A stretch of DNA of 64,000 bases from Candidatus Bathyarchaeota archaeon (GCA_963733095.1 CAVTBV010000014.1:100599-164598), one strand, 5' to 3'. Positions 32,799 through 49,918 are shown, counted from the stretch's first letter. A program made the numbers and translations. The notes: generated by a model not told the origin, from the letters alone.

Positions 32799-32880
32799 AT
32801 GCTCTTGTGGCCTCGTCAGAATTGTGGGCATGAAAACGATTAATCCTCAAGGGTTTGCGATAGTTGTGGCGTTTTGAGGA
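32799..32880 (+). pseudogene. degenerate RanBP2-like zinc-ribbon micro-gene
   Basis: GGAGG then MLLWPRQNCGHEND*SSRVCDSCGVLR, with an in-frame TAA. Confidence 0.4.
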
Positions 32881-32927
32881 TGCTAAAAATTAAATATGTC
32901 TTCTAAACTATCTGCTTGTAGAGCTAA

Positions 32928-33131
32928 ATGTCGTATAGGAACAGTAGTGCTGATAGATGTTCCCGTTGTGGTGGTGCAGTACTTAGGGGTGCACAGGGCG
33001 GTTTCTTTTGTTGTGTGTGTGGACTTGAAAAACGAGAATTTCATGGAGACTACGAATCAGTCGATACCCGAATGTTTTCTCGACGAAACAACCCAGAAAA
33101 TACTAAGCATTTACAAAGAAAAATCTTTTAA
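32928..33131 (+). CDS. small zinc-ribbon protein, copy 1
   Basis: CSRCGG....FFCCVCG; near-identical to 49380..49580. Confidence 0.6.
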   Translation: MSYRNSSADRCSRCGGAVLRGAQGGFFCCVCGLEKREFHGDYESVDTRMFSRRNNPENTKHLQRKIF

Positions 33132-33360
33132 AATATTGTGAACGTGATACGTTGGCTCTGGTCATATTGCATGAACAATTAGTCAATTATACCTAGTTAC
33201 TTCTTTATGTGCGTTTAGATTGAGGTATTGTTCAGAAAACAATCGAAGCGTTCTTGAGTAAAAGTCTTCATTAGTTGAGTGGAGGCGTTTCAATGAAAAA
33301 TCAATTATTACCTCTTGCAGAAGGTAGAAATAAAAAAGATATTACTGCCCCCAGTCTTCT

Positions 33361-33467
33361 TAATTTAAGAATTATAGTGGAAAATTCCTTGAAAATTATG
33401 CCAAGGGTGTACCAGATGACGCTAAGCAGTAATTTAAAATTATATTGAGAAAATAGCGGATAATTAT
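33361..33467 (+). repeat. two tandem half-copies of the AATTAT-N15-GATAATTAT element
   Basis: 33361-33399 and 33430-33467 keep the exact 15-nt spacing. Confidence 0.65.
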
Positions 33468-33836
33468 TTAACTGTGCAAGAGCTAAGCGCTAAATAGAAA
33501 AGGTGTGCAAGCTGGAAATTCATGAAATATTTTGTCCGATTCAACTAAGGTGTTATTGGTTTCTTAACCCAGTTAGCAATAGTCTCACTAAAAGACACGC
33601 GCATGATTTTTTCGCGCGCTAGCCGCCGGCTTTATTTGTTGTTGTATTCGAGTGCCCACAAAGGTTTTTATGCCTACGAGCTTCTCTGCTTTGATAACGC
33701 GCATGCGCGCGATTAATATCGCATCTAACTTTTTGCAAATAACAAGATTGGTGCTGGCTTTTTTGCTAAAACCAATTTTTGTTTGCTTAAAGTTAGTTGT
33801 AATTTGTCAAAAATTAAAGGAAGGAAAAGCAAAAAA

Positions 33837-36683
33837 ATGAAAAGATTTAAAAATAAGGCTATTGCAATTTTGACAGCAGTACTTTTAACGATTTCAATGA
33901 TAGCAGCTATTGCATTACTACCAAACGTCACCGCACACGATCCGGGATACCAGATTCCAACGTTTGCTTACATTGCGGTTCATCCTGACCCAATCGGTGT
34001 CGGCCAGACAGTTAACGTTTTCATGTGGCTCAACCAAATCTTCGGAGTAGGCTTGGGTGACTCAAGCAGCTATGCACTACTATCCAACAGCTACAGATTC
34101 CACAACTACAATTTCACTATCGTTGCTCCAGACGGCACTGTTAAAACTACAATTTTCGAAACTGTTTCAGACACTACCTCAAACCAAATAACAAGTTTCA
34201 CTCCCGACCAAACTGGTACATACACTTTAATGTTCAATTTCCCAGGACAAACATACACAGCAAGCAACGGTAATCCAAACAGTATAATGGTCAACGACAC
34301 ATATCTACCAAGCAGCGCATCAACAACACTTACTGTTCAATCAGAAGCAGTTCCAGGTGCTATAGGTAGTTCTCCGTTGCCGACCGCTTACTGGACACGT
34401 CCAATCTACGGTGAAAACAGTGACTGGTGGACTATTTCCTCAAACTGGCTGGGCGCAGGCTCAGCGGTTAACCCCGCAGTAGGTTCAGGCGTAGTCTCAA
34501 GTTTCTCTACAGGACCACCAACAAACATGTGGGGAGCAATCATGAGTCGAAATCCCGGTGACGCAATAGGGTCCCTGACTAGCCACGTAATGTGGACTAA
34601 GCCGATTCAAAGTGGCGGAGTCGTCGGAGGCAACGCGTTCTATGAAGGCGGTGGATATCCAGGAAACGGTCAAGGAGTCGGCTACTACGAAGGAACTGCA
34701 TACGAACAACGCTACATCAACCCGATAATTATGGACGGTATCCTCTACTACATGGGAGTATTAGGATTCGATGCTCCAAGCTATGGACCATTAACAGCTC
34801 TTAATCTGCAAACTGGACAAGTTGTTTGGACCAGCAATACATTGCCAGCGCCATCATTTGGCTACATATACAACCTTTGGAACCCTGATGAACACGGAAC
34901 TTTCCCACCAATACTAATTTGCCCGAACGGAGCCCTATGGGAAATGGTTGATGGATTCACTGGAACCGTACTGTTTAACGTGACTGGTGTTCCCTCAGGC
35001 TACGTCGCAGCAGGCCCATCAGGCGAACAACTACGATACGTCTTACAGAACAAAGGTACAACCGCAAACCCGAACTGGTACTTGGCAGAATGGAATTCAT
35101 CAAGAATCTGGCAATACGACATTAACCCATTCACAGGTGCAGGAAGTGTTTCACCAGCAATCATCAATGCAAGCACCGCATCATCATTAGTTACAATATT
35201 CCCAGCTTCCAACCAAGCAGCCGCTCAAAATACGCTCATTGTCCAAGCAAACGTAGGATTTAACACAATTGTCCCAGGTACACTTTTGGACTCTACTAAG
35301 TACCCCTCAGAATGCACTTATGACTGGAACGTTTCAATACCCGAACTGAACAACCCTGGCGGATCATCACCTTCAGTAATTGCAGGAATGTACAACAACG
35401 TTTTGATGACCTTGAACGGAACTCTACCCGCATCGCCAAGCAGCTTTAATGGAGCAGGCAGCTATACACCTTACACCTACATGGCATTCGACCTAACCAT
35501 CGGCCATGAAGGGGCATTTAAATGGATAAACACACTCCAACCAGTAGCAGGCAACGTCACCGTTTACTATGCAGGCGTTGATCCGACAACTAACGTCTTC
35601 ATAGAAGAAAACTATGAAACCTTGAATTGGGTTGGATATAGCCTGTTAACAGGACAAAAGATATGGGGTCCAACTCCAGCTATGGAGTCGCTTGACTACT
35701 ATGGTCAAACAGCGCCAAACGAATTCTGCGGTCAACTTGCCTTTGGTAACTTATACACAAGCGCATTCGGTGGAACAGTATACTGCTATAATGATTCAAC
35801 TGGAGAACTGCAATGGACATACGGTAACAGCAACACACCTGGCAACAGCACTCTTGCAGGATTTAATACACCCTACGGCGATTATCCGACGTTCATTCAG
35901 GCAGTTGGCAGCAATGGCGTGATTTACACTGTTACAACTGAGCACACTGTGATCGACCCGATCTACAAAGGTTCATTAGCTCGGGCAATTAATGCCACAA
36001 CAGGTGAAGAGATCTGGACAATTTCAGATTACACCAGCGAATTCATTCAAATGAGTTATGCTATCGCAGACGGATACAACACTTGGTTTAACGGGTATGA
36101 TGGACAAATCTATGTTGTAGGCAGAGGACCGAGTCAAACAACTGTTACAGCGCCAAATGCAGGTTTAGCCTTCGGGCAGAGCGTGGTAATACGCGGTACA
36201 GTTACGGATATATCCTCTGGCACAGAGCAGACGCAGCAGGCAGCTAATTTCCCCAACGGCATTCCAGTTGCAGCAGACGGGATTATGGGTGACTGGATGG
36301 GCTATGTCTACCAGCAGCAACCATTGCCAACTAACTTCACAGGTGTTCCAGTGGCGATCAGTGTGACGGATTCAAACGGCAATACCAGAGTTATCGGCAC
36401 TACGACAACTGACGCAAGCGGCGATTACGCTCTAACATGGGTCCCTGACATCCCCGGTGACTTTACTGTAACCGCAAACTTCGCGGGAACAAATGGTTAC
36501 TGGCCATCAGCATCGACGACCTCATTTAACGTCATGGTAGCTTCAACACCTGCGCCGACAACCTCAGTGCCTTCAGGTCTTGCGTCTACAGATACTGTGG
36601 TGTATGGCATAGTGGCAATTATAGTTGTGATGGTTATAATTGGCATTGTGTTAGCATTGCTCATGCTGAGAAAGCGGCCCTAA
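33837..36683 (+). CDS. large cell-surface PQQ-like beta-propeller protein, paralog 1
   Basis: Signal peptide, P.P.GVGQ Ig-like domain, LPT.YW.RP, repeated TG...W blades, W..YVY.QQP, C-terminal TM+RKRP. Confidence 0.85.
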   Translation: MKRFKNKAIAILTAVLLTISMIAAIALLPNVTAHDPGYQIPTFAYIAVHPDPIGVGQTVNVFMWLNQIFGVGLGDSSSYALLSNSYRFHNYNFTIVAPDGTVKTTIFETVSDTTSNQITSFTPDQTGTYTLMFNFPGQTYTASNGNPNSIMVNDTYLPSSASTTLTVQSEAVPGAIGSSPLPTAYWTRPIYGENSDWWTISSNWLGAGSAVNPAVGSGVVSSFSTGPPTNMWGAIMSRNPGDAIGSLTSHVMWTKPIQSGGVVGGNAFYEGGGYPGNGQGVGYYEGTAYEQRYINPIIMDGILYYMGVLGFDAPSYGPLTALNLQTGQVVWTSNTLPAPSFGYIYNLWNPDEHGTFPPILICPNGALWEMVDGFTGTVLFNVTGVPSGYVAAGPSGEQLRYVLQNKGTTANPNWYLAEWNSSRIWQYDINPFTGAGSVSPAIINASTASSLVTIFPASNQAAAQNTLIVQANVGFNTIVPGTLLDSTKYPSECTYDWNVSIPELNNPGGSSPSVIAGMYNNVLMTLNGTLPASPSSFNGAGSYTPYTYMAFDLTIGHEGAFKWINTLQPVAGNVTVYYAGVDPTTNVFIEENYETLNWVGYSLLTGQKIWGPTPAMESLDYYGQTAPNEFCGQLAFGNLYTSAFGGTVYCYNDSTGELQWTYGNSNTPGNSTLAGFNTPYGDYPTFIQAVGSNGVIYTVTTEHTVIDPIYKGSLARAINATTGEEIWTISDYTSEFIQMSYAIADGYNTWFNGYDGQIYVVGRGPSQTTVTAPNAGLAFGQSVVIRGTVTDISSGTEQTQQAANFPNGIPVAADGIMGDWMGYVYQQQPLPTNFTGVPVAISVTDSNGNTRVIGTTTTDASGDYALTWVPDIPGDFTVTANFAGTNGYWPSASTTSFNVMVASTPAPTTSVPSGLASTDTVVYGIVAIIVVMVIIGIVLALLMLRKRP

Positions 36684-36702
36684 GCTAAAGAACCAAATAA
36701 AT

Positions 36703-36722
36703 TTCTTCCCTTTTTTTTGTTT
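36703..36722 (+). terminator. pyrimidine/T-tract terminator
   Basis: ttcttcccttttttttgttt about 20 bp after the stop. Confidence 0.55.
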
Positions 36723-37082
36723 AAATGTATACGTTGAGGGCTGAGTGGGCTCTAGTTTAATTGGCAATGCTAGTGGCTATATTTTTGTGAGGAGCGTTTT
36801 GCGGTATTGCCGAGTATTCGCCCTTCGCAGAAAAATCAGAATACAAAAAATAGCTCAGCGGCAATCAGTGAATAGTCTTATCAGAGGTTTCAAGGTTCAC
36901 TTGGCGCTCGCTTGAAGTAAGGTTAGATGGCTAAATCACGGCTTTATTCCCGTAGGTAGCAGAGGACACTGTTTCGCTCGGATACACTACTTTCCACCTA
37001 TCGCTCTAAAAAACCTGGTAGTTTGGCAAGTAACAGATCTAACAAAATCATATATTTCAGTTAATATCAACTGATTGTTCAA

Positions 37083-38669
37083 ATGAAAAAGCAGATCTCT
37101 GTAATAACAATTTTACTTCTTGGCTCGCTTATAGCATCTTATGTGGGGTCAGTTCAAGGTTGGAGTAACGGCGGCTATTCTGCTGACCCTTCTTACCCAG
37201 ATTATGGAACGCATGATTGGATTGCTCAACATGCCTTAGATTGGTTGCCAACCCAAGAGAAACAATACATCATTGATAACTTGGCGGCTTATCTTTACGG
37301 AACGGAGCTTCCAGACAACAATAATGCTTCAGTTCCAGGTCATATAGGGGACACAACAAAACACCATATTTACTTCAGGTCCACTGGAGTTCTTCAAGAT
37401 GACGCTGCCGCAGTCAGAGCCGATGAAGAATACCAAAATGCGTTAAGTCGCCTAAACGCTGGAAATCTTTCAGGCGCTGCCACAATTGTGGGAATAATGA
37501 GCCATTATATCGCAGACGTGGCTGTTTTCGCTCATGTAATGGGTGCAAATACTGATTGGGATGCCGAAACAGGTAACAACCATGCTAACTATGAAAGCTA
37601 TGTTGAAACCCGAACAAACGCTTATTCTGACACCTACAATTCCTACTTACTGTTCGATGGACTCTTGTCAAGTGTTTCTGCTTATGATGCAGCGAAAAAC
37701 CTTGCCTATGACACAACTTTTGATAACGGTGGAATCTACAATTGCGTTTGGATGAATAATAACTATGATACTTCTAATCCTAACTCTGCTTATTGGGTCA
37801 GAGCTGGAGAATCCCTCAACCTTGCAGTAAATGCAGTTGCAGATGTCTTGCATACCCTCTACATCAGCTCAAACGCTCAGCCAACATCTACCCCAACACC
37901 AACTCCGAGCCCTACTCCTACTCAAACGGGGACAGATCATATATTAATCAATGAAATCGAACAAAACCCTACTGGAACTGATGCTGGAAACGAATATATT
38001 GAACTTTTTAACCCCACCGTAAACAGCGTAGATATTAGCAGTTGGACTGTATCCTCGACTGCAGGAGCCACAGTTACCTTGACAATTTCTTCAGGAACAG
38101 TACTTCAATCTAATGGATATTATTTGGTGATGTCTGGTTCACAATGGATAGATAACGAAGGCGAATCGGTAATTTTACGCAATTTCAGCGGTAATGAAGT
38201 AGACAGAACTCCTTCTTTTAGTGATACAGATAATAACGGTTGGAGTTGGCAGAGATATCCGGATGGTCAAGATACAGACTCAACAGCCGACTGGGCGTTT
38301 CGATTGTCTACAAAAGAAGTGTCTAACGGCGGGATACCAACTCCAACACCATCTCCAACTCCAAGCCCTCCCCCAACTGTAACTCCAACGCTAACCCCAA
38401 GTCTCACTCCTTCCCCTTCTCCAACGCCTTCACCTGCAGCAACTCCGACGCTCATACCTACCATTGCTCCAACGCAAGCTCCAATAGCGATAACTTCACC
38501 CACACCATTCACTACATCAACTCCGACCGCAACACCGTATTCTATCCAGAACCCGACACCTATGCCTACAATTCCAGAGTTTCCACCAACCATAATGCTG
38601 CTCCTGATGGCTGTGTTATTTCTAATAGTAACTTTAGGTTTGGTTGCCTATCTTAAGCAAAAATCCTGA
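37083..38669 (+). CDS. secreted Zn-dependent phospholipase C/S1-P1-fold enzyme + lamin-tail domain + Pro/Thr linker + PEF-CTERM-like anchor
   Basis: Mature N-terminal W (VQG|WSNGG..HDWIA), PD...HH, HY.AD...HV, H..YE; ILINEIE.NP.G.D...EYIELFN; IPEFP+TM+basic end. Confidence 0.82.
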   Translation: MKKQISVITILLLGSLIASYVGSVQGWSNGGYSADPSYPDYGTHDWIAQHALDWLPTQEKQYIIDNLAAYLYGTELPDNNNASVPGHIGDTTKHHIYFRSTGVLQDDAAAVRADEEYQNALSRLNAGNLSGAATIVGIMSHYIADVAVFAHVMGANTDWDAETGNNHANYESYVETRTNAYSDTYNSYLLFDGLLSSVSAYDAAKNLAYDTTFDNGGIYNCVWMNNNYDTSNPNSAYWVRAGESLNLAVNAVADVLHTLYISSNAQPTSTPTPTPSPTPTQTGTDHILINEIEQNPTGTDAGNEYIELFNPTVNSVDISSWTVSSTAGATVTLTISSGTVLQSNGYYLVMSGSQWIDNEGESVILRNFSGNEVDRTPSFSDTDNNGWSWQRYPDGQDTDSTADWAFRLSTKEVSNGGIPTPTPSPTPSPPPTVTPTLTPSLTPSPSPTPSPAATPTLIPTIAPTQAPIAITSPTPFTTSTPTATPYSIQNPTPMPTIPEFPPTIMLLLMAVLFLIVTLGLVAYLKQKS

Positions 38670-38863
38670 TCTTGAGTATGAGCTTGTATCCATAATTTTT
38701 TTTCTTAGAAACAGAAAAGAGAAAGCCGAAGTAAACTTGCCCAACCAACATTTATGACTGTGAAGTACTATTTTCCCGATAACAACTATAATACATTGAT
38801 TATAACGCAAATTAACAAAACGACAAGTGAATAATTAAAAAAATTGTGTTCGAATTTGTAAAG

Positions 38864-39385
38864 TCAGGACTTGGAAAAGTACCACTTCTTAATTTCTTCC
38901 AAGCTTTTTTGGGATTTATTGAATTCAGACAACATGCAGTCTATAGATTTGGAGCACCCGAAGCACGTTTCAGGTACAACTTCATTTTTGCCTTTTTCTC
39001 TGAGAAACCCAAAATAGTAGGAACACTGAAATTCCGAGGTTCCCCAGGTTTGTTCTTTAGGTCTTTCTCGGCTCTCATTGCTAAGCTCCGCTGACTTTTT
39101 GTTTGAAATAATTTCTACAATATTTGGCTCTTCCAAATGAGAATATGCACGAGCACGTTCAGAGGTTAAATCGAAAACATGCGGGTTTGCTGTTGCCTTT
39201 ACATCAATTACTTTTGTATCTTCAGTTACTATTTCAATTTTCGTCATGCAATGGGGGCAAGCGTAATGTGTTTCTCTAGGAATCTTAGATGAGTCGGTAA
39301 TCATGGTGGGCTTGTCAAATTCTTTCTCGCATCCTTTATAGGGGCACTTGAGCTTACTTTTTTGGAGCTCGCGGAGAAAACGCAA
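38864..39385 (-). CDS. Cys-rich zinc-binding hypothetical protein
   Basis: CPYKGC...ACPHC and C.YYFGFL...PETCFGC....DCM. Confidence 0.75.
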   Translation of the reverse strand: MRFLRELQKSKLKCPYKGCEKEFDKPTMITDSSKIPRETHYACPHCMTKIEIVTEDTKVIDVKATANPHVFDLTSERARAYSHLEEPNIVEIISNKKSAELSNESRERPKEQTWGTSEFQCSYYFGFLREKGKNEVVPETCFGCSKSIDCMLSEFNKSQKSLEEIKKWYFSKS

Positions 39386-39582
39386 ATCGGTCGCTTTCCT
39401 TGATATTCTGGGTTGATGAATATTCTGCTAATTGTGTTACCATGCCTTTCCACTGACTGCAATATTTATGGATATTGTACACATTTAGATATTATGACTT
39501 AATATACAATATTACTACTCCACAAACTCAATACAGAAAAAAGACTATGAGGGCCAAATAGGTCAAAGAAAGGAAGAATAAT

Positions 39583-39837
39583 TTGCCTATTATTCGGTGC
39601 ACGTGCAGTTTTGAGTATCTTTGGTTGCCAGATATGCAAGTTATGGGTCAGGCTATCGAAAAGCATGCTTTGAGCATTTTACGGAGAAATTTTACTCGTT
39701 TCCAAGCGAATGGCGATGTTAAAAGTGCGAAAATTTTGGGTGTTGATGCTTTTGGTGACAGAAAAAAAGCACATTTCGATAACATATTTAGCTTAACGCA
39801 AAATGGAATTATAATGCTAATCTTTTTCTTCTCTTGA
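39583..39837 (+). CDS. hypothetical protein, possibly degenerate
   Basis: TTG ORF after AAGGAAG; only the N-terminal part (MPIIRCTC...AIEKH) looks protein-like. Confidence 0.3.
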   Translation: MPIIRCTCSFEYLWLPDMQVMGQAIEKHALSILRRNFTRFQANGDVKSAKILGVDAFGDRKKAHFDNIFSLTQNGIIMLIFFFS

Positions 39838-39924
39838 ACTTATACACATACTATTGAATGTCTGTCGCCTTATCACTTAGTCAGACGAATATCTCTCAAC
39901 AAAAACAATCTTTGAAAAGTAGGA

Positions 39925-39962
39925 TAATTAAGAATTATGTTAAGAATTCCCAAGATAATTAT
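39925..39962 (+). repeat. half-copy of palindromic element
   Basis: TAATT-AAG-AATTAT-GTTAAGAATTCCCAA-GATAATTAT. Confidence 0.8.
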
Positions 39963-40171
39963 GCGTCAAATTCCTTGTTTGTAGTTGGTTTTGATTTGGC
40001 TCAGTTATTTTCAAGGATGAATCTATAGCACTTCTTTTTTCCAATTTTTTTAATAAACTCTTATCTATTTGTTGATTGGCAGAACAAAGAATGGTTTTCC
40101 CGATTAAGGCAGTCAAGAAAGTTTGACGAAAAAACTTTTATTCTCCTATCAATTGGCACCAATGAGATAAA

Positions 40172-40777
40172 ATGAAAAGAATTGTCTACTTGTTGCTTGC
40201 CCTCTTCATATCTTGTGGATTCCTAGCTGCTTGTGAAGGAGCCGTATGGTTTGAAGGGTACACCCCGCAAGAACCACAGGAAATCCAACTAAATATGCAG
40301 CACATTGAAAATCCCATCGTAAATGCATCTGTTCCAACATGTCATCTTTTGCTTAACGAAACGGGACCTGACAGTGCTGATCTAACCATTAGTATTGGCA
40401 CGGTCGCATTGTTTTACCAAAATGGAAACTTTAGCACTTGGTTCTCCATCGACTCCAAAGCACCAGAAGAACTTGCCAGCATCCTAAAAACAGAACCTTC
40501 AGCCGCTGGAGAGTCTTGCAGCCGCCAATACAATATTACACTAAACGGGTTAAGCAATGGTGCTCATCTCATTACTATTCGAGTCGCAGGACAATATTAC
40601 GGTCCTGAGGTGAGCTATTATGATTGTGAAGGTAACAAAACTGTTCTGGTTAATAACCAAATCACTGCATCTCCAACTGTTCCAGAGTTATCTTGGTTAT
40701 TAATCATGCCCTTGCTGATTGGTACTCTTACAGTTGCACTACTGCTTAGACATCGAAGAAACATTAAGACAAGATGA
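40172..40777 (+). CDS. secreted protein with PEF-CTERM-like (VPEL) anchor
   Basis: Signal peptide; GLSNGAH.I Ig-like strand; PTVPELS+TM+RHRR. Confidence 0.8.
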   Translation: MKRIVYLLLALFISCGFLAACEGAVWFEGYTPQEPQEIQLNMQHIENPIVNASVPTCHLLLNETGPDSADLTISIGTVALFYQNGNFSTWFSIDSKAPEELASILKTEPSAAGESCSRQYNITLNGLSNGAHLITIRVAGQYYGPEVSYYDCEGNKTVLVNNQITASPTVPELSWLLIMPLLIGTLTVALLLRHRRNIKTR

Positions 40778-40788
40778 GTTATAAGTCA

Positions 40789-40851
40789 ATAATTATCAGG
40801 GGATTTTCGGCGCTAATTAAGAATTATGTTGGGATTTCCTATTATAATTAT
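40789..40851 (+). repeat. full 63-bp palindromic element
   Basis: ATAATTATC-N15-CTAATT-AAG-AATTAT-N15-TATAATTAT, 11 bp after a stop codon. Confidence 0.88.
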
Positions 40852-41380
40852 GAGGTAACACGTAGCTCCAGCGCTAAAATTAGTGCAATCTCGATAGAGT
40901 TCATATTAGGTCTGTAGGTGGCAGGTTAGAGATTAATGGGTAAAAAGCTGAAGACTATCTTGCGGGCAGTTGTTAGTATGCCTATTACTGCAATTCTTCT
41001 TCTTTCAGGGGATCTCTGTGTTGTCTACGGTCACGTTCGGTGTCGCACACGCTACGTGGGATATGCCTAAGAAAATGCCGACCAATAACTTTCGAAGATT
41101 CCACATTGAAAGTTGAATGATGGTAACTTGGTTTTTTTATAACCATTTTTGGAAGCACCTCTCTCTTCTTTCTTTGAAACATTATAACGTTGTTATGGGC
41201 AGAAATAAACTTTTGCCTTCAATTAGTTGTTTTACAAAAACAGAGTTCTTAGGTAGCGCGCGCTAATCTACATAGCAAACCCTTTTAATTCAGCTAAAGA
41301 TGATGAAAGTTATGTCATCAACCAAAAAGATGGTTGTTGAGTGGAAAGGTAATCTCTGCTTAGAAGAAATATTTTGTAAA

Positions 41381-41411
41381 AAGAACCGTTGGGAATTCCC
41401 TTGATAATTGT
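41381..41411 (+). repeat. partial copy of palindromic element
   Basis: AAGAACC-GTTGGGAATTCCCTT-GATAATTGT. Confidence 0.7.
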
Positions 41412-41465
41412 GATACAAGCCCTAACCAAGAGTAATTCCGAAATCGGCAACCTAAAGCCGTTGCA

Positions 41466-41870
41466 CTATCGGGACTTGGAAACGTTCAGTTTTACAGCAG
41501 CACGAATTAGGGTCTTGAAGGCTTCCTCGTTAATCTTCTCGCCTTCATGTATGTCGATGGCGCGCCTGACAGTTCCAGGCTGGTTGAACAGGTGCGAGGG
41601 GTCATCCAGCGAAGCACCCTTGAAGAAAGTAAGCTTGACCGCACTCTTGTAGGTCTCTCCTGTACAGATGCCACCGTTGTGGGACCAGACTGGAGTCCCG
41701 GGATTTGTTGGCTTCACCCACTTCCACTCTTCAACTACTTCCGGGTCTGCCTCCTTGATGAGTCGGCGCACTTTAGCTAACGTTTCTCCGCGCCAGTCGC
41801 CTAGTTCCTGAATTTTCCTGTCGATAAGTTGTGAAGGAGACTCGTCTTTTTTCTCGCTACTCTTTGCCAT
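41466..41870 (-). CDS. DUF1801 (YdhG-like) protein
   Basis: DWRGETL..VR.LI.EADP.V.EEWKW..PVW.H.G.ICTGE.YK..VKLTF.KGA.L.DP..LFN. Confidence 0.9.
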   Translation of the reverse strand: MAKSSEKKDESPSQLIDRKIQELGDWRGETLAKVRRLIKEADPEVVEEWKWVKPTNPGTPVWSHNGGICTGETYKSAVKLTFFKGASLDDPSHLFNQPGTVRRAIDIHEGEKINEEAFKTLIRAAVKLNVSKSR

Positions 41871-42068
41871 GTTGTTCACCTGTCAAAAGATTTCATAGTT
41901 AAGAACTTGGTTGCCTAGTTTTAGGTACTCAGTGCCTTATTTATACCCATACTTATTGGCTGAAGGCTTCTTAATTTCTAGAGCACTTGGGCTTTTTGGT
42001 ACTTTAATTAGTCGATAGCATCTATGCGGAACATATTTGTGCGCAGGATGTTGAGTACATCTGAGTTA

Positions 42069-42131
42069 ATAATTATCAGGGGTTTTTCGGCTCTAATTGA
42101 GAATTATGTTGGGCTTTCCCTTGATAATTAT
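42069..42131 (+). repeat. full 63-bp palindromic element
   Basis: ATAATTATC-AGGGGTTTTTCGGCT-CTAATT-GAG-AATTAT-GTTGGGCTTTCCCTT-GATAATTAT. Confidence 0.88.
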
Positions 42132-42176
42132 AGTCCAAACCCGAATAGCTAGCTCGAGTCAATTTAACTAAGTATT

Positions 42177-42194
42177 GGATTAAATTTTAGTCCC
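42177..42194. repeat. 18-bp near-palindromic repeat, left copy
   Basis: GGATTAAATTTTAGTCCC, identical at 43525-43542. Confidence 0.75.
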
Positions 42195-42315
42195 CAAACC
42201 CAAACTACCTAACGTCTAATCGCTATCTCTTCTTCCCCTACTCCCTCTTATTCTCTAAGCGCGCTGTTAAATATTAATATTAAAAACACTAAATAGTCAA
42301 TATAAAGGAAATATA

Positions 42316-43446
42316 ATGAAGAATTCGAAGGATGGCTGGTTCTGGATCAATCTGGAAAGGCCGGACCGGAGGATACTGATTTTCTTTTTCTGTTGCATAG
42401 CTATAATCTTAACTCTGATAATTATAACTGGTATCCTATCATTGGAAGAAGACCTTTTTTTCTCCGCCATTCTTGTTCTCGGTGGCTTGATGAGCGCTTT
42501 CATAATCACAGGAATATTGGCTTTCAGTTACTATTATAAAAGAGCGATAATCTCCACCAGAACGGTTCTGTCATGGTTCGCAATCTTCGCGTTTATTTTT
42601 TCAGCAGTGGCTAATGTCGTCATTTATCTGCTGGCCCAAATGAGATACTTTGGCGCATCCACATTTTTTCTTTTTGACCTCAACACCGTTAGCATCAATA
42701 ATATCTTGTGGCAATTTCTCGTGCTTTTCCTATTGGCCATTTTTGTGCTGATTGAGACCATGTTTGAGGCTTTTGGCCTTATTTGGATGCTGGCAGTCGT
42801 GGAAAAAAATACTTTCCCCTATGCTCTGACGGACATAACGAAAATAACTTCCAATACATCAAATTCAATGTCCAGAAAAAACAAACTTACCAGCAGAAGA
42901 TACTCATTGCTCCAATGGTTGTTCAATATACCAGACGTTCTTGACACAAAACTTCTCAGCATAAACTATGATGAACAGAAGAAAAGGTTCCAATGGAAAG
43001 CCCTCAAAACCGCCGTTCTCTGGGGGTCGTTTCTAGGCTTTATCCTAACAATTCTCGTCGTTAACTACATAAAATCCTTAGCACAAATATCCATAGAAAA
43101 CCTGTTAGCGATATCCAGTATAATAGTAATAATGACACCGGTACTCGTTCTCTCATGGTTTATCTTCCTCAGACTGGATGCCCGCATCAAAGGAGACGTT
43201 AAGGACTTTAAACTCTACAACGGCCTCAAATCCCGTATAACTAGTTACACTGTGACATTTGGCACATTCATTATCTTGATCCGTTTTGCCGTCGAAAAGA
43301 CGGACTTTCAACAACTGTTCTGGTCGTTCGTCAGCTACTACCCGATTTTTTTGGTTTCAGTAACGATTTTCACTTTCATTTACTTCAATTATTTCGAGAA
43401 TAACATAGCAAAGAACATTGCCGACAAGTATCGTAAAAAGGAGTAG
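42316..43446 (+). CDS. polytopic membrane protein of unknown function
   Basis: 376-aa ORF with ~8 hydrophobic segments. Confidence 0.8.
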   Translation: MKNSKDGWFWINLERPDRRILIFFFCCIAIILTLIIITGILSLEEDLFFSAILVLGGLMSAFIITGILAFSYYYKRAIISTRTVLSWFAIFAFIFSAVANVVIYLLAQMRYFGASTFFLFDLNTVSINNILWQFLVLFLLAIFVLIETMFEAFGLIWMLAVVEKNTFPYALTDITKITSNTSNSMSRKNKLTSRRYSLLQWLFNIPDVLDTKLLSINYDEQKKRFQWKALKTAVLWGSFLGFILTILVVNYIKSLAQISIENLLAISSIIVIMTPVLVLSWFIFLRLDARIKGDVKDFKLYNGLKSRITSYTVTFGTFIILIRFAVEKTDFQQLFWSFVSYYPIFLVSVTIFTFIYFNYFENNIAKNIADKYRKKE

Positions 43447-43524
43447 TCTTGGAAATGGTGTAAAAGCGGGTATTTTTTTTTATTCTTGTTTTTCTTAAAA
43501 AGAAAGAATAAGAGTGGGGGTTGG

Positions 43525-43542
43525 GGATTAAATTTTAGTCCC
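43525..43542. repeat. 18-bp near-palindromic repeat, right copy
   Basis: GGATTAAATTTTAGTCCC, identical at 42177-42194. Confidence 0.75.
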
Positions 43543-43767
43543 ACACACATTTTCAACGGCAAAGCCTTGGCTCTGGTTTTACGTTGCTTGATTTCAGGTA
43601 AACAGGGGTCCGCCTGGAGGTCAAATGTAGGTCTTGCGCTCACGTTCAGGTATGTATCTACCATCGAGGAATCTCACCCCATAACACGTACATTTCACAA
43701 ATGAAGAAACGTTCCTCTGATCCTCTCAAAATAGGAATAGATACAGGGGCGTGATTGTTATCTAAAA

Positions 43768-44742
43768 TCAGCGTCTCCAATTATTATATTTGGCGTAAGT
43801 GGTTATATCGGGAGATTCGGTTTTTGCCAATAAATCAGTAATATATTTTTTTGCGGATTCTACAACCTTGCTTTCGAAGGATACGATTCCTGCTTCAAGC
43901 AATCCTCCTCCTGTTGAACCACTGTATAGGTTCATTGAAGAGACTATCGCCACTTTATGGTCAATTATTATGATTTTGGCATGGATAGTATTGATGTAAT
44001 GAATGTTAACTCCTTTTTTTCTCAAAAGGGCATGACACTCTACTTTTTTAACATCATCTTTGTCCTTTTTTGGTCTGGTAGTAACAATTCTAACATTTAC
44101 ACGTCTGTCCTTTGCTTCTGTTAAAAGTGTTATAGGGTGACAACTATCAACATAGGGGCTTGTAACTAAGATTTCGTCTTTAGCTTTTTCAATCAGGTCT
44201 CTGGCTAATTCTTCAAGCCTTAACCCTTCTAAAAAGAATTGTTTTGATTCTAAAGCAATATTGATTGGCTTTGAAGCTACCCATTGAATTAGCCCTTGAA
44301 TTAGGCTATCGTCAATTTTTTCTGAGATGGGTACCTTTTGAACTGGTTTTTCTGCTTCTTTAGGTTCGACATTTGAAGTTGTTTTAGACTCTATTTTTAT
44401 TGAATTTGTTTTTTGTTCGGCTTCTGCTTTTGCCTTAATTTGTTTTTGTATCTCTTGATGTTTTCTGCAAAGAGCCATATTGAAAAAACTTGTAGAGTAA
44501 CTATATTCTTTAGGGGTTATTTCCTCTTGGCATACAACACAGCAATAATTTTGCTTTTCCAAAGTGCTTTCAGGCTCTGATGGTGCATTTGTTTTTTGTT
44601 CAGTTTCGGCTTTTGCTTTAATTTGTTTTTGAATTTCTTGGTGTTTTCTGCAAAGAGCCATATTGTAGAATTTGAGTGAGTAACTTTCTTCTTTGTCTGT
44701 TATTTCTTCTTGGCAAACGACACAGCGATTGGTCATAGCCAA
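43768..44742 (-). CDS. PLD-family (single HKD) nuclease-like protein with two N-terminal Zn-finger repeats
   Basis: Twice CVVCQEEIT.KE.SYS..F.NMALCRKHQ; A..EILVTSPY; HAKIIIID; SSMN; EAGI. Confidence 0.85.
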   Translation of the reverse strand: MAMTNRCVVCQEEITDKEESYSLKFYNMALCRKHQEIQKQIKAKAETEQKTNAPSEPESTLEKQNYCCVVCQEEITPKEYSYSTSFFNMALCRKHQEIQKQIKAKAEAEQKTNSIKIESKTTSNVEPKEAEKPVQKVPISEKIDDSLIQGLIQWVASKPINIALESKQFFLEGLRLEELARDLIEKAKDEILVTSPYVDSCHPITLLTEAKDRRVNVRIVTTRPKKDKDDVKKVECHALLRKKGVNIHYINTIHAKIIIIDHKVAIVSSMNLYSGSTGGGLLEAGIVSFESKVVESAKKYITDLLAKTESPDITTYAKYNNWRR

Positions 44743-45083
44743 ATTTTATCTCAACAAATAATATAAATGGTTCTAATCAGAGATCAACATCCGTTTTACT
44801 CAATCATGTAAAACGTCCTTAACGTCGTAAACTGTGACAGCTCCAAGCTGTAACATTAAAGAACGGTTGGATGCAAAAAGCCCTAATACCTCATTAGTCC
44901 AAGCACGATAATAACCCGAATCAAAAAAATCGGTAACAAACTCACTATCTTACTGTGAACACAGCGACGAAGAACTCAAAGAACAGGCATATCAATTGCT
45001 AATCTGGAAACGAAACTTCAGAAAACACTTCTATAAGACCAGAAAAAGGAGGAGGGATTGGTTTTTTTTGCTTGAGGAATTGG

Positions 45084-47720
45084 CTATGGCTTTTTTCTAA
45101 GTAACAATACGCCGACTATGGCGATTGCAATGATTATGGCGATTACTCCCACTGCGATGTACATCATTATGTCTGTTGTTGTGGCCAAGTTTGTTTGAGG
45201 TGCAGCCGTTGGTTGGGCTGTTGGTGCTGCTTCGCTTGCAGTGAAGTGTGTTTCTGCATTGGAGGGGTAGTATGAGTCTGATCCTGCAAAAGTAGCTATG
45301 ACTGTGTAAGCGCCTGCTATGTCAGGTGTCCAAGTAAAAGCAAACGTGCCGCTGCCATCGCTTGTAGTGGTGCCGATGTTTCTGTAGTTGCCATTAGAGT
45401 CAAGAACATCGATTGACACTGGAACGCCAGTCACGTTGTTTGGGCATGATTGCTGCATGTAAACATACTCCATCCAAGCGCTTTGGCTCGCGTCAGAAAC
45501 ACAAGGTAATCCATTGGGGAAGTTGGCTGCTTGTGCCTGTTGTTGTGTGCCTGCAGAGATGTCGGTAACTGTTCCCGTTATCGTTATTGGTGTGGAAGTT
45601 GTTACGCCAACACTTGGTGCTTCAACTGTTAATTTGCTTGGTCCTTGACCGTAGGCGTATAATTGATTATCATATGCGTTGAGTACCATTGCTTCGCCGT
45701 CTACGATTGGTGCCGCGTTGGTAACGTCAAAGCCCATTATTTTCCATATCAACGAGCCATCAGTAGTGTTTAGTGCCAGTTGCTGTGCTCCGCGGAAAAG
45801 GGGTGGACTATACTCATGACCAACATTAAGTAAATACACTCCGTTTCCAGAAATAGACCCGCCGCTGAAAACCCAAAGTGGCCACACACCGTAAGGTGTA
45901 TCAGAACCAGCTTCTCCAATGAGCGTGTTAGTATTTGTGTACCACAGTTGCTGTCCACTTGTTACGTCAAGAGCCCATATGTCTCCTCCAAAGCCCGCTA
46001 CATAAAGTACGCCATTAGCAAGTTCTGTTTGGTAGCCGCCGATGCTGTTGTATGGGTTTGGCACTGGGAAGTTTCCGTTGTCACCTGAGAGTTTTATTGG
46101 ACCCCATGCCAGTGTTCCTGTATTCAAACTGTAAGCTCTGATTGTGCCTTGGGTTGCATCAATTCTAACTTCAAGTCCATATCCAACCTTAGTGATCTGA
46201 TCCCTTGCGAAAGCATCTAGCGTTCGATTAGTTATCCACAGTTGTGTTCCTGTAACTGAACTGTAACCTGCTTCAATTCCGAACCCAGTATTAAAACTAC
46301 CAGACACGTCTGGAGCAGGAACAGCAGTCAAAAACACCACACCGCTATTGACATTATTAATCGACAGCGTCTGGGGCAGAGGAACACCTGAAATGTCTGT
46401 TGCTAGCGGTGTTGTCCATTGTATTCCACGTTTGAAATCAATGACTTGGTTTTGTAGTGGTCTCCAGTTCCAGTTCGCAACTGTCGTTCCGAGAACGAAT
46501 TGGCTGTTTGGATAGAGAATTGCTTGGGTCGAGTTCCACATGTTCAACGTTGGTGCGGTTGGAATCGTATTGTTAACAAAGTAGCCTATCAAATTTCCGC
46601 TGTCATCTTCTGTTAGCGTCATCGAAGAACCGTTTACAATGCTCAGAATGAAGTTCCCCGTTTGGGCGTCATACATATCCCAAACTGCGGCGTTTACGCT
46701 GGGACCAGTGCCCAGGTTAAATGGGTTTACCAGAAGAGGATTGGCCCATAAGTATGCGATTGACCCAAACTGGTTGGGGTTCACCATTTGTAGCAGTTGG
46801 CCGCATCTTAGAATGTCAGTAGTATTTTTTGTCCATAGTGTTTGTCCAGTGCGTATGTCTACGGCAACCCAGCCGCCTGGTGTAGTGTAGGAATTCGGGT
46901 ATGTTACATAGTACATTATGCCGTTTATGATTATTGGCGCCCATTTTGGCTCATACTGTGAAGTTGAGTAGTAGTTGCTTGTGTCGGTTCCGCCGAATTC
47001 TCCTCCAACTAAGCCTCCGAACGCAACAGGCTTTGTCCATAAAATGTGAGCTGCCAATGGCGCGTCAGAGTATGGATTATAGTTTCCGGTCATGTTGTAT
47101 CTTCCTGTATTGGCGAAACTGTGTGTGCCCAAACCAAGCCAATTGCCCGTAATCGTTGACCATAAACCGTTTCCAGATTGTACTGGGCGCGTCCAGTAGC
47201 TTGTTGGTAGCGGAACTGTCTGTATATATGGGATTGCCTCTGCTTGCACTGTGCAATGTGCTGTTTCACTGGTGGAGGCCTCAAAATAATCGCCAATATA
47301 TGGACCAAATCCTCCGTTTTCACCGGTCAGTGTTTGGCCTGGAAAATTAAACACAAATGAGTAGTTTCCGAGTTGGGTTGGCGTGAATGTTGTGTATGTT
47401 CCTCCTGTGTCATCAGATGTAAATGGCCCTAGCGTTTGTGTGGTTCCATCAGGACTTGTAATTGTCAGTTTGAAATTGTGCCATCTGTCGCCAGTTGCGG
47501 CGAGTGCCGTGGGTGGTGGTATTTGAAGCCACATGCCAACTGTAACTGTTTGACCGAGACCTGCAGGGTTTGGCGCAACGTTAACAAAGGCATAAGTTGG
47601 AATTTGCCATGCTGGTGTATGTGCATTAGTGCTGGGTAATAGAATCATTGAAGTTCCCATAGAAATTGTTAAAAGCAAAGCAATCAAAATAGCCATAGTT
47701 TTATTTTTTAGTTTTTCCAT
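45084..47720 (-). CDS. large cell-surface PQQ-like beta-propeller protein, paralog 2
   Basis: Same architecture as 33837..36683; ends in TM+RKKP. Confidence 0.85.
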   Translation of the reverse strand: MEKLKNKTMAILIALLLTISMGTSMILLPSTNAHTPAWQIPTYAFVNVAPNPAGLGQTVTVGMWLQIPPPTALAATGDRWHNFKLTITSPDGTTQTLGPFTSDDTGGTYTTFTPTQLGNYSFVFNFPGQTLTGENGGFGPYIGDYFEASTSETAHCTVQAEAIPYIQTVPLPTSYWTRPVQSGNGLWSTITGNWLGLGTHSFANTGRYNMTGNYNPYSDAPLAAHILWTKPVAFGGLVGGEFGGTDTSNYYSTSQYEPKWAPIIINGIMYYVTYPNSYTTPGGWVAVDIRTGQTLWTKNTTDILRCGQLLQMVNPNQFGSIAYLWANPLLVNPFNLGTGPSVNAAVWDMYDAQTGNFILSIVNGSSMTLTEDDSGNLIGYFVNNTIPTAPTLNMWNSTQAILYPNSQFVLGTTVANWNWRPLQNQVIDFKRGIQWTTPLATDISGVPLPQTLSINNVNSGVVFLTAVPAPDVSGSFNTGFGIEAGYSSVTGTQLWITNRTLDAFARDQITKVGYGLEVRIDATQGTIRAYSLNTGTLAWGPIKLSGDNGNFPVPNPYNSIGGYQTELANGVLYVAGFGGDIWALDVTSGQQLWYTNTNTLIGEAGSDTPYGVWPLWVFSGGSISGNGVYLLNVGHEYSPPLFRGAQQLALNTTDGSLIWKIMGFDVTNAAPIVDGEAMVLNAYDNQLYAYGQGPSKLTVEAPSVGVTTSTPITITGTVTDISAGTQQQAQAANFPNGLPCVSDASQSAWMEYVYMQQSCPNNVTGVPVSIDVLDSNGNYRNIGTTTSDGSGTFAFTWTPDIAGAYTVIATFAGSDSYYPSNAETHFTASEAAPTAQPTAAPQTNLATTTDIMMYIAVGVIAIIIAIAIVGVLLLRKKP

Positions 47721-47894
47721 TTTATTTTTCCTTTCCTTTAATTTAGGTCAAAAAGTATGAAAATACTTCTTGCAGATTCCCTCTTGTCTACTTCTTATTT
47801 AAATAACTTTGCAATTTACTCCAAAACATTGTAAAGCGGCAGACAAATATCCAAAAGGTGCTGGTAGTAAAACAGGTGGTTTGAATGGGAGCTG

Positions 47895-48108
47895 ATGGAT
47901 AGAATAACGATAGACCCTGAAGTTATGGTTGGTAAACCAGTCATTAAGGGTACCCGTATCACGGTGCAGCTGATTGTTCAACTCTTGGCAAATGGGGCAT
48001 CAGAAGTTGAATACTAAATGATTACTCGGATCTGAAGAAGGAAGACATTAAAGCTGCCTCTTATACGCGTCCGAATGCCTTGGTCGCGAAGAAGTTATTC
48101 CTGTTTGA
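47895..48108 (+). pseudogene. DUF433 antitoxin pseudogene
   Basis: [24 protein letters not shown]..., then frameshifted [16 protein letters not shown] and LYASE. Confidence 0.85.
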
Positions 48109-48128
48109 GCGCAGAGGAAGTCGCGTCT

Positions 48129-48300
48129 TTGGCGAAAATCCTCGTCGACCAAAATATAGCAAAACGTGCCCTGGACTGGCTCAAGCATAAGGGCTTTGAA
48201 ATAGTTACCTTAGCAGATGTCAACCTCAGAGGCCAGCTGACAAGAAGATAGCGGCATTCGCTATGCAAAACAACATGGCGATTCTGACACAAGACGTTCG
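48129..48300 (+). pseudogene. DUF5615 PIN-like toxin pseudogene, truncated
   Basis: MAKILVDQNI....WL..KGFE........RG, frameshift, ADKKI..FA..NNMAILTQD; canonical partner of DUF433. Confidence 0.8.
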
Positions 48301-48347
48301 AGGAAATCAGGTATCGCATACCCTGTGATGGTCTTGCCAAAGACTCT

Positions 48348-48998
48348 CTACAAGCATTTAAGGTATTTGATTAGCCGTTGGAATTCTCCGGTTTTTCTCA
48401 TCTGCCCCCTCTGAAGCATTTCTTCTATGGTCGACTTGACGTAAAGTCCGCCAGGAGGATACAGCTGACGCGCCACTAAGGTAAAGACTTTGCAGTTTTG
48501 TTTTCCAATAGCTTCTTCTTTAAATCGCCATTTGTAGGGACCTCCCGGTGGAAGAAGCGTTTCAGAGAGAACGACAACAGCAAAATTCCGCACCTTGGCA
48601 GTTGCTTCAAGTTCATTGAATTTAACCCGCAGCACCTTGTTGGAGTCTTCGCGTTTTCCGCTCTCCAAAGTCTTGCCGCCGACAGCGTTGTTCTTAACCT
48701 CTATCACTATCTTCACTTGGCTAGATGGGGCTGTTTCTTGGTTTGGGTCTACACCGTTTTTCAAGAGCAGCAAATCATTTTTGATTTTAGATCCTTGAAT
48801 CTTGACGTTTGGAATCATTGACAAATTAAGGCTTCTTCTAATAAGGTGATTGCGTAAGACTGTTTCCGCTGGGCTTCCGTTCCGCTCGCGAGCTGTTTTG
48901 TCGGTTTTTTGTTTCTCAAATTCTTCGCTGACCTCGATCAGCATAGTATACTCCTCATCGGTAGCTGTTAGGAGTGGTTTTTTGGAATAATTGGGCAC
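48348..48998 (-). CDS. PD-(D/E)xK nuclease, restriction-endonuclease-like
   Basis: AE...R..L helix, KNDLLLL, VIEVKN. Confidence 0.6.
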   Translation of the reverse strand: MPNYSKKPLLTATDEEYTMLIEVSEEFEKQKTDKTARERNGSPAETVLRNHLIRRSLNLSMIPNVKIQGSKIKNDLLLLKNGVDPNQETAPSSQVKIVIEVKNNAVGGKTLESGKREDSNKVLRVKFNELEATAKVRNFAVVVLSETLLPPGGPYKWRFKEEAIGKQNCKVFTLVARQLYPPGGLYVKSTIEEMLQRGQMRKTGEFQRLIKYLKCL

Positions 48999-49107
48999 AG
49001 GTAGGATATCACTCGCTTATAAAAAAACTCTTGCAAATTCGGTGAGCAACGCTTTTCTAAGAACATATTAATCGGACGGTAACTCACAACTATTTGAGGT
49101 TGAATGT

Positions 49108-49311
49108 ATGCCGATTGTTCAAGTTTCTGTTTGGGAAGGAATGACTCCTGAAAACAAAAAGAAAACCGTTGAAGGAATAACCAAAGTCTTCGAAGAAATG
49201 GGCGTACCAAAAGACGCAGTCCACATAGTGATCTATGAAGCTCCAAAAAGCAACTGGGCAACGGGCGGAGTGTTGCATTCAGAAAAACACGCCCAAACAC
49301 CCTCACTATAA
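49108..49311 (+). CDS. 4-oxalocrotonate tautomerase family protein
   Basis: N-terminal catalytic Pro (MPIVQV), K...V..IT, V.IVIYE....NW..GG. Confidence 0.92.
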   Translation: MPIVQVSVWEGMTPENKKKTVEGITKVFEEMGVPKDAVHIVIYEAPKSNWATGGVLHSEKHAQTPSL

Positions 49312-49379
49312 TCTGCATAATTAAATCAAAATACTAAAAATTAAATATGTCTTCTAGACTATCTGGCTTGTAGAGCTAA

Positions 49380-49580
49380 ATGTCGTATAGGAACAGTAGT
49401 GCTGGCAGATGTTCCCGTTGTGGTGGTGCAGTACTTAGGGGTGCACAGGGCGGTTTCTTTTGTTGTGTGTGTGGGCTTGAAAAACGAGAATTTCATGGAG
49501 ACTACGAATCAGTCGATTCACGAATGTTTTCTCGACGAGACAACAGAGAAAATACTAAGCGTTCACAAAGAAAATTCTAA
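49380..49580 (+). CDS. small zinc-ribbon protein, copy 2
   Basis: Part of a ~240-bp duplication (49334-49577 vs 32883-33125) that includes upstream sequence. Confidence 0.6.
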   Translation: MSYRNSSAGRCSRCGGAVLRGAQGGFFCCVCGLEKREFHGDYESVDSRMFSRRDNRENTKRSQRKF

Positions 49581-49661
49581 GCATAAGATTGTGCCCTACG
49601 ATGAAAACAATTTGTACTGCTCAGAAATTTTGTTAAATTTGCTTTATGCTAAAAGAAGCAA

Positions 49662-49727
49662 ACAATTATGCCGGAGCTTTCTTGCAACTTATTTAAGAAT
49701 TATGTTTGTAAATACTGCGATAATTAT
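49662..49727 (+). repeat. diverged copy of palindromic element
   Basis: ACAATTATG-N18-TTATTT-AAG-AATTAT-GTTTGTAAATACTGC-GATAATTAT. Confidence 0.72.
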
Positions 49728-49918
49728 GCACTAAACGCCAAGCTACAGTTTACACAAAGCTAAGGTGGGGAAATTAAACGCTACTATATTTTGAGTTTAT
49801 CAAGAGGTAAGTTAATTGGGATTGTATTTATGAAATGCGCATTAAAATCACAGCGTTTTGTTGATAGGTAGTTTAATGAAGAGTAAACTTAAAAAGTGGA
49901 TAAAAAGAGTTTACCTAA

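Follow-up and report, generated by a model that had tools for sequence, protein, structure and literature searches.

Within a 64,000-nucleotide stretch of DNA from Candidatus Bathyarchaeota archaeon (hereafter the window, to which coordinates without a prefix refer), a short palindromic element recurs between genes, and we consider it probable that small gene cassettes, which lack a recombinase gene of their own and belong to one genus of Bathyarchaeia, use this element to attach to the chromosome. In the mechanism that we propose, a cassette would be 0.5 to several kb long, contain from zero to a few genes in either orientation, and have at each end one of a pair of imperfect inverted repeats, about 25 bp long (hereafter the arms). 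Its point of insertion, always entered in the same orientation, would be the asymmetric core TAATTAAGAATTAT of 14 bp, and this core would come to lie on both sides of the insert. As the target is thereby regenerated, more cassettes could enter, and head-to-tail arrays would arise. The 63-bp "palindrome" seen within an array would then be a hybrid, composed of the end of one cassette, the common core, and the start of the next cassette. Insertion and excision would be performed in trans by a site-specific enzyme, with the conserved boxes of the arms as its predicted binding sites; the likeliest chemistry would be that of a conservative recombinase acting via a circularized cassette with a left arm, a core, and a right arm. 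Such a genus-wide system would accumulate accessory transport, sensing, and cell-surface genes at a single 14-bp target, using a new type of site and no recombinase in cis. To our knowledge, gene exchange in the abundant and uncultured Bathyarchaeia is almost undescribed.

The evidence that carries this reading comes first from the region between ilvC and a DUF3795 gene. In 20 array maps from other species the same frame is found: ilvC on the opposite strand, a first copy of the element, a variable stretch with further copies, and DUF3795, which is followed by ornithine/aspartate carbamoyltransferase and then D-aminoacyl-tRNA deacylase. Five of the genomes examined have no full copy beside ilvC, namely G003, G008, G019, G072, and the genome of the window itself (G000; 2.84 Mb, 16 contigs, 95% complete). 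In these, the 14-bp core alone is kept upstream of ilvC, about 36-40 bp from the start codon and followed by a CCCTCA-type flank, and in G019 the distance from ilvC to DUF3795 is 117 bp. At filled sites, the ilvC end runs from the flank through the core into the right arm, in 31 unique junctions that lack a left box without exception and are always divergent to ilvC. The DUF3795 end consists of left arm, core, and a CC(C/T)T flank, an arrangement that can be clearly recognized in some 11 of the 26 unique upstream regions and as remnants in three more. Between the two ends lie 1-9 kb of variable cargo, interspersed with full sites, and single inserts have a 14-bp direct repeat of the target on both sides. 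The junctions at the two ends indicate that the insert entered exactly at the core, which now stands on both sides of it.

The ilvC core is the main chromosomal target, and the array in the window is a second array at another locus. At the ilvC site of the window's own genome, no more than a decayed right arm and some 1.1 kb of sequence stand ahead of DUF3795. From its position, the core at ilvC is probably the TATA-box region of that gene. The target is not a tRNA gene, and the window as a whole yielded none.

A second line of evidence is that the same cassette occurs in different contexts. For example, the DUF1801 cassette of the window is 84-89% identical in eight other species, and the homology runs from the first base past a core to the last base of the next core. 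In G094, G065, and G010, no insert other than this cassette lies between ilvC and DUF3795, and in G118 it is the last of two; it has other neighbours in G115 and G086, and in the window it belongs to a non-ilvC array. The centre of its right arm is GGGAATTCCC-like in all carriers, which means that this variable centre belongs to the cassette. Likewise, the right arm and downstream sequence of the site at 39925 were found behind different left flanks in G002, G127, and G121. Homology blocks end between -40 and +60 nt relative to the core start in 65 of 440 cases on the left and 64 of 440 on the right (15%), compared with 1.8% of bases, and when sites from different loci are paired, homology extends on one side only in 68 pairs and on both sides in 3. 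The arms diverge right outside the 14-bp core, and each arm goes with its own neighbour. No other genome keeps the 20-kb region of the window in order; its pieces match scattered places.

An earlier annotation, made from the sequence of the window alone (hereafter the first-pass annotation), had read the copies as sites of a gene-shuffling system and proposed to look for synteny breakpoints at them. Gene content between sites does vary among species, with breakpoints inside the element, and the exact junctions, the empty targets, and the movement of one cassette between contexts bear that reading out. Copies are co-oriented in all 64 genome loci (some of which overlap) and all 11 metagenome loci that have at least two copies. 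Successive copies are 66 bp to 9 kb apart, with a median of 1.2 kb. Gene-free units exist as well, seen as spacings of 66-155 bp and as a variant unit, E2 (Table 1); the 66-155-bp units and the junction at 41374 look like the outcome of recombination at secondary sites, or of decay.

Would a regulatory element explain the same observations? If the copies were operator or promoter modules of a DNA-binding regulator, with the mosaic gene order arising from homologous recombination between copies, this would suit the three AT-rich palindromic boxes with their regular spacing, the fact that all genomes examined have the core in the promoter region of ilvC, and the position of several window copies 184-209 bp upstream of + strand genes. 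However, the copies hold no fixed positions relative to promoters, which is what the first-pass annotation had named as decisive for an operator. In a survey of 67 strong sites in 22 loci, 65 of the sites lie outside open reading frames (ORFs) of at least 80 aa, the four combinations of flanking-gene orientation occur 20, 17, 16, and 14 times, and the distances range from 8 to 1085 bp. This random orientation and varied distance rule out a promoter, operator, or terminator tied to the neighbours. In addition, the arms are variable and move with the cargo, the window copies lack conserved downstream sequence, and the empty sites share 14 bp only, which is too short for homologous recombination and yet gives exact junctions. 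We regard the regulatory explanation as very unlikely.

In its full form, the cassette site is a three-part joint that consists of a left arm (ATAATTATC-N5-ATTTTC-N5), the asymmetric 14-bp core, and a right arm (GTTGGTAAAT-N5-GATAATTAT). Across 39 full sites from many genomes, the core is nearly invariant, the consensus of the left arm is ATAATTATC-acggg-ATTTTC-tAncC, and that of the right arm is GTTGGtAAaT-cCtgc-GATAATTAT. When reverse-complemented, the left arm reads GgnTaGAAAAT-cccgt-GATAATTAT and resembles the right arm; the arms are thus imperfect inverted repeats, with an identity to each other that averages 15.6 of 24 positions over the same 39 sites. Either arm has an outer GATAATTAT box and an inner GGTAAAT/GAAAAT box, separated by five variable bases. 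Both outer boxes are present in 51 of 148 unique sites and the right box alone in 95 of the 148. Where both occur, the right box begins 16 nt past the core in 49 of 51 sites, and the left box stops 17 nt short of it in 40 of 51. The symmetry that the first-pass annotation described is therefore real, but its layout of 30+3+30 bp gives way to a consensus of 25+14+24 nt, and only the copies at 40789, 42069, and 49662 have the full 63-nt form. The copies at 33362, 33430, and 39925 consist of core and right arm, and the one at 41374/41381 of a right arm alone.

The E2 unit has the form ...GGTTATTTAAAATTATA-TGA-AAAATAGCGGATAATTAT-TGGGTTTTAG and is also present at C12:116298-116358. Other genomes and metagenome contigs together have 77 copies of it, distributed over 61 loci and mostly 60-120 bp past a normal site, and the unit looks like a variant core joined to an arm with a conserved centre. 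It was also considered as a promoter of the next gene, which is opposite to it in 26 and in the same direction in 12 of 38 cases; E2 is thus not a simple promoter. An Rfam scan of 32500-51000 gave a single match, which was sub-threshold and irrelevant.

All seven copies reported for the window were located at their positions, on the + strand and in one orientation. A repeat search recovered one family of seven members, 39 nt long, at 33362, 33430, 39925, 40814, 41374, 42094, and 49690, as well as a 68-nt repeat pair at 40784 and 42064 (identity 88%), which represents the two best full copies. The pattern TAATTNARAATTAT-N16-ATAATTAT, with at most 3 mismatches, has 8 matches in the window against 0.01 expected, and none of 100 shuffles reached 8. 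Six of these matches are + strand sites; the remaining two come from the left halves of the full copies 40789 and 42069, in mirror image, and thus show the symmetry of the element. As had also been noted, single genes (40172-40777 and 41466-41879) are bracketed by copies, and the stop codon at 40777 is followed 11 bp later by the copy at 40789. The features of the array are summarized in Table 1.

Table 1. Sites, cassettes, and segments of the array in the window
Feature	Position	Strand	Description
Degenerate site, left edge of the array	33362-33399	+	Core-like AATTTAAGAATTAT 33362-33375, right arm 33376-33399, no left arm
E2 variant unit	33421-33468	+	Variant core TAATTTAAAATTAT, then conserved ...AAAATAGCGGATAATTAT
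Half site	39925-39962	+	Core 39925-39938, right arm 39939-39962; left end of the cassette with gene 40172-40777
Full site	40789-40851	+	Left arm 40789-40813, core 40814-40827, right arm 40828-40851
Right arm of the DUF1801 cassette	41374-41411	+	Arm 41388-41411 behind non-canonical 14-mer 41374-41387; likely a secondary-site or decayed junction
DUF1801 cassette	41388-42107		Right arm, gene 41466-41879 (- strand), left arm, core
Full site	42069-42131	+	Left arm 42069-42093, core 42094-42107 (TAATTGAGAATTAT), right arm 42108-42131
Multi-gene segment between two sites, 7.6 kb	42108-49703		Pieces match scattered places in other species
Full site, diverged left arm	49662-49727	+	Left arm 49662-49689, core 49690-49703 (TATTTAAGAATTAT), right arm 49704-49727

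In the genome as a whole, a profile scan found the seven window copies, a tandem pair at C12:116256-116358, and one weak match on C8. With hardly any copies outside the window, the element is local and of low copy number rather than a repeat spread genome-wide. This bears on another alternative of the first-pass annotation, a non-coding repeat resembling a miniature inverted-repeat transposable element (MITE), which would pile up in variable regions and have no part in gene movement. The element is short, palindromic, intergenic, and AT-rich, as a MITE would be, and gene-free units occur. Nevertheless, there are at most 10 copies in this genome (two loci and two weak solo hits), and across genomes the copy number is low (1-15 per genome), with copies clustered rather than dispersed and uniformly oriented within each locus; moreover, the two halves of a hybrid belong to different neighbours. 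We see very little chance that this explanation holds. The two solo matches, at G000:C6:56019-56059 (-) and C8:13198-13234 (+), consist of left arm and core with the right arm absent and score 24.9 and 21.9, respectively; they may represent the distal ends of other arrays of this genome that were lost or have decayed.

The spread of the element was scored with a sequence-only covariance model of the core and right arm. The model matched 68 of 119 other species of the genus, with 1-15 matches each, and not one genome among 145 that represent 78 further genera of the class; the exact pattern was absent from 24 genomes of other genera in the order. The element is confined to one genus of Bathyarchaeia. 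Among the 80 contig matches listed from GTDB, 75 are named Candidatus Bathyarchaeota or Bathyarchaeia, 2 "uncultured archaeon", and 3 after bacteria. One bacterial-named contig with the element is probably mis-binned, because the family of its D-aminoacyl-tRNA deacylase flank is that of the archaeal loci.

A few further observations concern individual loci. In G127, contigs C10 and C17 (L033 and L049) share their last cassette and right flank (the carbamoyltransferase, the deacylase, and the genes beyond) and have different arrays upstream of an identical site, which may be strain-level cassette variation within one bin (contamination 4%). Six metagenome contigs (L196, L199, L197, L213, L221, and L209) start or stop inside the element or no more than about 60 nt from it; such assembly ends are expected if populations differ in their cassette content there. 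A gene for ribosomal protein L10 lies inside the 8-kb regions around copies in five loci (e.g., L116:1139-2002) and may be a second recurrent target beside ilvC.

The best-known platform for the capture of gene cassettes is the integron, in which the gene for an IntI-type tyrosine recombinase stands next to the array, with attI beside it. Its attC sites are recognized as folded single strands, in which the pairing of R''/R' and L''/L' rather than the sequence is conserved; the crossover takes place at the 3'-terminal GTTRRRY box, and nearly the whole attC belongs to the upstream cassette. The Bathyarchaeia arrays share with integrons the head-to-tail arrangement of small integrase-less cassettes with accessory genes, the palindromic joints of about 60 bp that are each a hybrid of two neighbouring cassettes, the single fixed chromosomal entry point, the co-orientation of sites, and a cargo devoted mostly to transport, sensing, and unknown functions. 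They differ in that no intI stands beside the array, the entry point is the promoter of the housekeeping gene ilvC rather than attI, the crossover lies in a central 14-bp core common to all sites rather than at the 3' end of a folded hairpin, and the arms show no hairpin covariation. Since the cargo genes face either way, they do not depend on one platform promoter, unlike those of integrons. Short recombination sites also flank many accessory modules of Acinetobacter plasmids with no dedicated recombinase nearby; these pdif modules are flanked, in inverted orientation, by XerC/XerD sites that are 28-bp look-alikes of dif. The sites described here, in contrast, are 63 bp long, all direct, and without dif architecture.

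These comparisons allow us to judge whether the element belongs to a known family of sites, that is, attC used by IntI, or a dif-like site used by XerA as in pdif modules. Co-oriented palindromic sites between small accessory genes would suit either, and the first-pass annotation had likened the core, TAA-N7-TTATGTT, to Xer dif and the palindrome to attC. In the consulted part of one report (PMC2958812), dif is given as two 11-bp imperfect inverted arms with a spacer of about 6 bp. No 11-N(4-10)-11 inverted repeat was found over the core: the best one scores 7.03 of 11 in the 39 full sites, compared with 7.15 ± 0.85 in shuffles. The consulted part of a second report (PMC9668308) does place integrons in archaea, those reported so far having canonical attC sites in metagenome-assembled genomes (MAGs) of nine phyla. 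The likeness to attC fails here as well, as the two arms of a cassette are complementary at 3.65 of 8 positions versus 3.48 of 8 for random pairs, hairpin folding exceeds shuffles in only one of the two full copies tested (z of -3.35 for copy 42064 and 0.25 for copy 40784), the crossover is central, and the cargo faces either way. In addition, no integrase adjoins the arrays, and XerA-sized recombinases were found in only three of five element-rich genomes (which are incomplete). Membership in a known family is therefore, in our judgement, highly improbable.

A transposon deserves more weight. In that case the cassettes would be non-autonomous transposons, with the arms as terminal inverted repeats, the core as a target-site duplication produced by a 14-nt stagger, and a casposase-like Cas1 or another enzyme acting in trans. 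The ends of the cassettes are imperfect inverted repeats, and on both sides of an insert the same 14 bp of the target stand in direct repetition. The same architecture is described in the consulted part of a report on the casposons of Methanosarcina mazei (PMC4779613), which have 14-bp target-site duplications and, where they are in tandem, are separated by a shared duplication only. Terminal inverted repeats, one common 14-bp direct repeat, and the building of an array by repeated use of a site are thus shared; the units here, however, measure 0.07-9 kb and carry neither Cas1 nor PolB. Cas1 does not track the element either: it was detected in 27 of 69 element-bearing genomes and in 24 of the 51 others (Fisher p = 0.46), it gave no hit in the element-richest genomes (G002, G120, G121, G127, and G112), and near the element it is limited to one 20-aa fragment in 1.15 Mb of genome loci, with none in 0.22 Mb of metagenome contigs. 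Two further points are that the direct repeat is always one and the same sequence and that the non-canonical 14-mer at 41374 is not repeated at the other end of its cassette. The window's genome does have a Cas1 gene without Pfam-recognized cas neighbours, situated inside inverted repeats of about 190 bp, but these repeats are unrelated to the arms of the cassette site. On balance we consider a transposon unlikely, though a more serious contender than the other alternatives weighed so far.

The element that carries this Cas1 gene is an observation in its own right. It is 5.8 kb long (G000:C12 ~240142-245929; L312:8143-13930), its inverted repeats are 85-88% complementary, and it encodes Cas1 (352 aa, 163 bits), a NosD-like protein, and several ORFs of unknown family. 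Pfam found no cas neighbours in the 10 ORFs scanned, no PolB is recognizable, and no obvious flanking duplication was seen. We regard it as a candidate casposon-like element.

Site-specific accretion is also known from the cis-mobilizable elements (CIMEs) of streptococcal integrative and conjugative elements (ICEs), from tycheposon islands, and from Tn7 islands. There, as here, direct att repeats bound successive segments at one target, and some of the segments have no recombinase gene and would depend on one in trans. The differences are that the segments here are cassette-sized, that both arms are conserved on nearly all of them, that the target is not a tRNA gene, and that no autonomous element using this site was found in the genome loci, the metagenome contigs, or IMG/VR. 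In the consulted part of a review of archaeal tyrosine recombinases (PMC8371274), tandem integrated elements are described, and nothing of this kind is given for Bathyarchaeia.

We regard the Bathyarchaeia system as a case of site-specific cassette accretion, and there is a real chance that its enzyme and chemistry are new. A more far-reaching possibility, which we think less likely than not, is that it constitutes a third platform for cassette capture in prokaryotes, next to integrons and to tandem islands of the casposon or Tn7 type. It would consist of a leader, the flank at the ilvC promoter, and a 14-bp repeat that is duplicated at each acquisition, growing like an array of clustered regularly interspaced short palindromic repeats (CRISPR) with genes as "spacers", and its enzyme would be neither IntI nor XerA and might belong to a family not yet linked to cassette capture. 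The consulted parts of the literature on integrons, attC, and mobile elements of Bathyarchaeia, on archaeal integrons, and on XerA/dif, which do not extend to the attC and MAG lists of earlier surveys, contain no description of the element. Inverted-repeat ends together with a shared 14-bp repeat at a fixed flank bear on the proposed relationships among casposons, CRISPR arrays, and integron-like systems. The exact site model may serve to find the mobile gene pool in metagenomes, and the sequence-defined natural "landing pad" next to ilvC could serve genetics in the group.

A number of points weigh against the cassette reading. The inverted-repeat ends and the 14-bp direct repeat, taken by themselves, fit a transposon with target-site duplication equally well. 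For the window's own array, no empty site was matched in relatives at either end; relatives share only its Hcp-corrinoid flank, and the far side is variable. In the 2.84-Mb genome, 20 ORFs match the tyrosine-recombinase family PF00589, and five element-rich related genomes have 1-5 such matches each. When all 20 ORFs were compared by tblastn with genome loci totalling 1.15 Mb (242 element hits) and with metagenome contigs totalling 0.22 Mb, no consistent neighbour of the element emerged. An integrase gene on C12 stands 295 bp away from the two copies there and points in the opposite direction from them. Other species that carry the element have no close orthologue of this gene; the best match, at 44% identity, is in a genome that lacks the element, and none of the homologous loci bears a copy. 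Two exact-pattern scans of IMG/VR for the element returned nothing. No circular cassette, excision joint, or extrachromosomal copy was found, and the four public runs consist of low-coverage contigs that are uninformative on excision. The arrays could be old and inactive.

The first-pass annotation had placed the recombinase gene outside the window, which agrees with the tblastn result that none is encoded beside the arrays; the XerA/IntI-like genes that it suggested looking for next to the element did not emerge as consistent neighbours. No relative of the C12 integrase turned up in IMG/VR, the 95% complete genome yielded no serine recombinase (PF00239), and none of 65 metagenome contigs is circular. 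Some contigs of the public runs hold the element in other contexts, their source being relatives. Two candidates were discarded: 36 IMG/VR matches to a 17-mer, all without the right box, are chance matches, and the small ORF that is duplicated upstream of two copies is not a piece of an integrase gene. As MAGs often lack plasmids and viruses, the enzyme could come from an unbinned element. An empty target and the 63-bp site would together form a substrate for fishing it out.

With regard to the cargo, the first-pass annotation had described it as cassette-like. Pfam supports this for the nuclease (PLD-like), DUF1801, and the tautomerase, and a small ORF is indeed duplicated. The toxin-antitoxin pair persists only as remains, a truncated DUF433 and DUF5615. 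The cassette that begins at 39925 encodes a membrane or secreted protein of 201 aa (gene 40172-40777). The segment 42108-49703 carries a 376-aa membrane protein, the PLD-like nuclease, an 878-aa PQQ-like surface protein, the DUF433/DUF5615 remains, a 216-aa ORF, the tautomerase, and the duplicated small ORF; a flavoprotein gene (49919-50710) comes after the site at 49662-49727. In flank and cassette proteins taken together, Pfam identifies transporters (MFS, ABC, MMPL, cation and manganese efflux, EamA, and ECF), PAS histidine kinases, TrmB/ArsR regulators, DUF1801, flavodoxins, DsbA, subtilase, lectin-like proteins, and NosD-like or PQQ-like surface proteins. Among 86 cassette proteins, no recombinase appears in the 25 most frequent Pfam families (the best 25 of 82), and a recombinase family represented by a single protein may stand lower down.

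Several genes of the window show duplications. The PLD-like nuclease gene (43768-44742) has an internal 183-bp tandem duplication (44401-44546/44584-44729, 82% identical) that encodes repeated CxxC...CRKHQEIQKQIKAKAE modules, and fragments at 50920-51251, which match the same gene at 74-85% identity, are probably a pseudogene copy of it. Related stretches of 57 nt, with identities of 70-89%, are found at 30022-30078, 49252-49308, and 51610-51666; the second of them forms the 3' end of the tautomerase gene (49108-49311), which suggests three tautomerase paralogues or remnants in the window. Finally, the gene for a 966-aa PQQ-like surface protein (33810-36800) has a 98% identical copy at G000:C9:42355-45340, with no element beside it, and this second gene may be a recent duplication or a strain variant in the bin.

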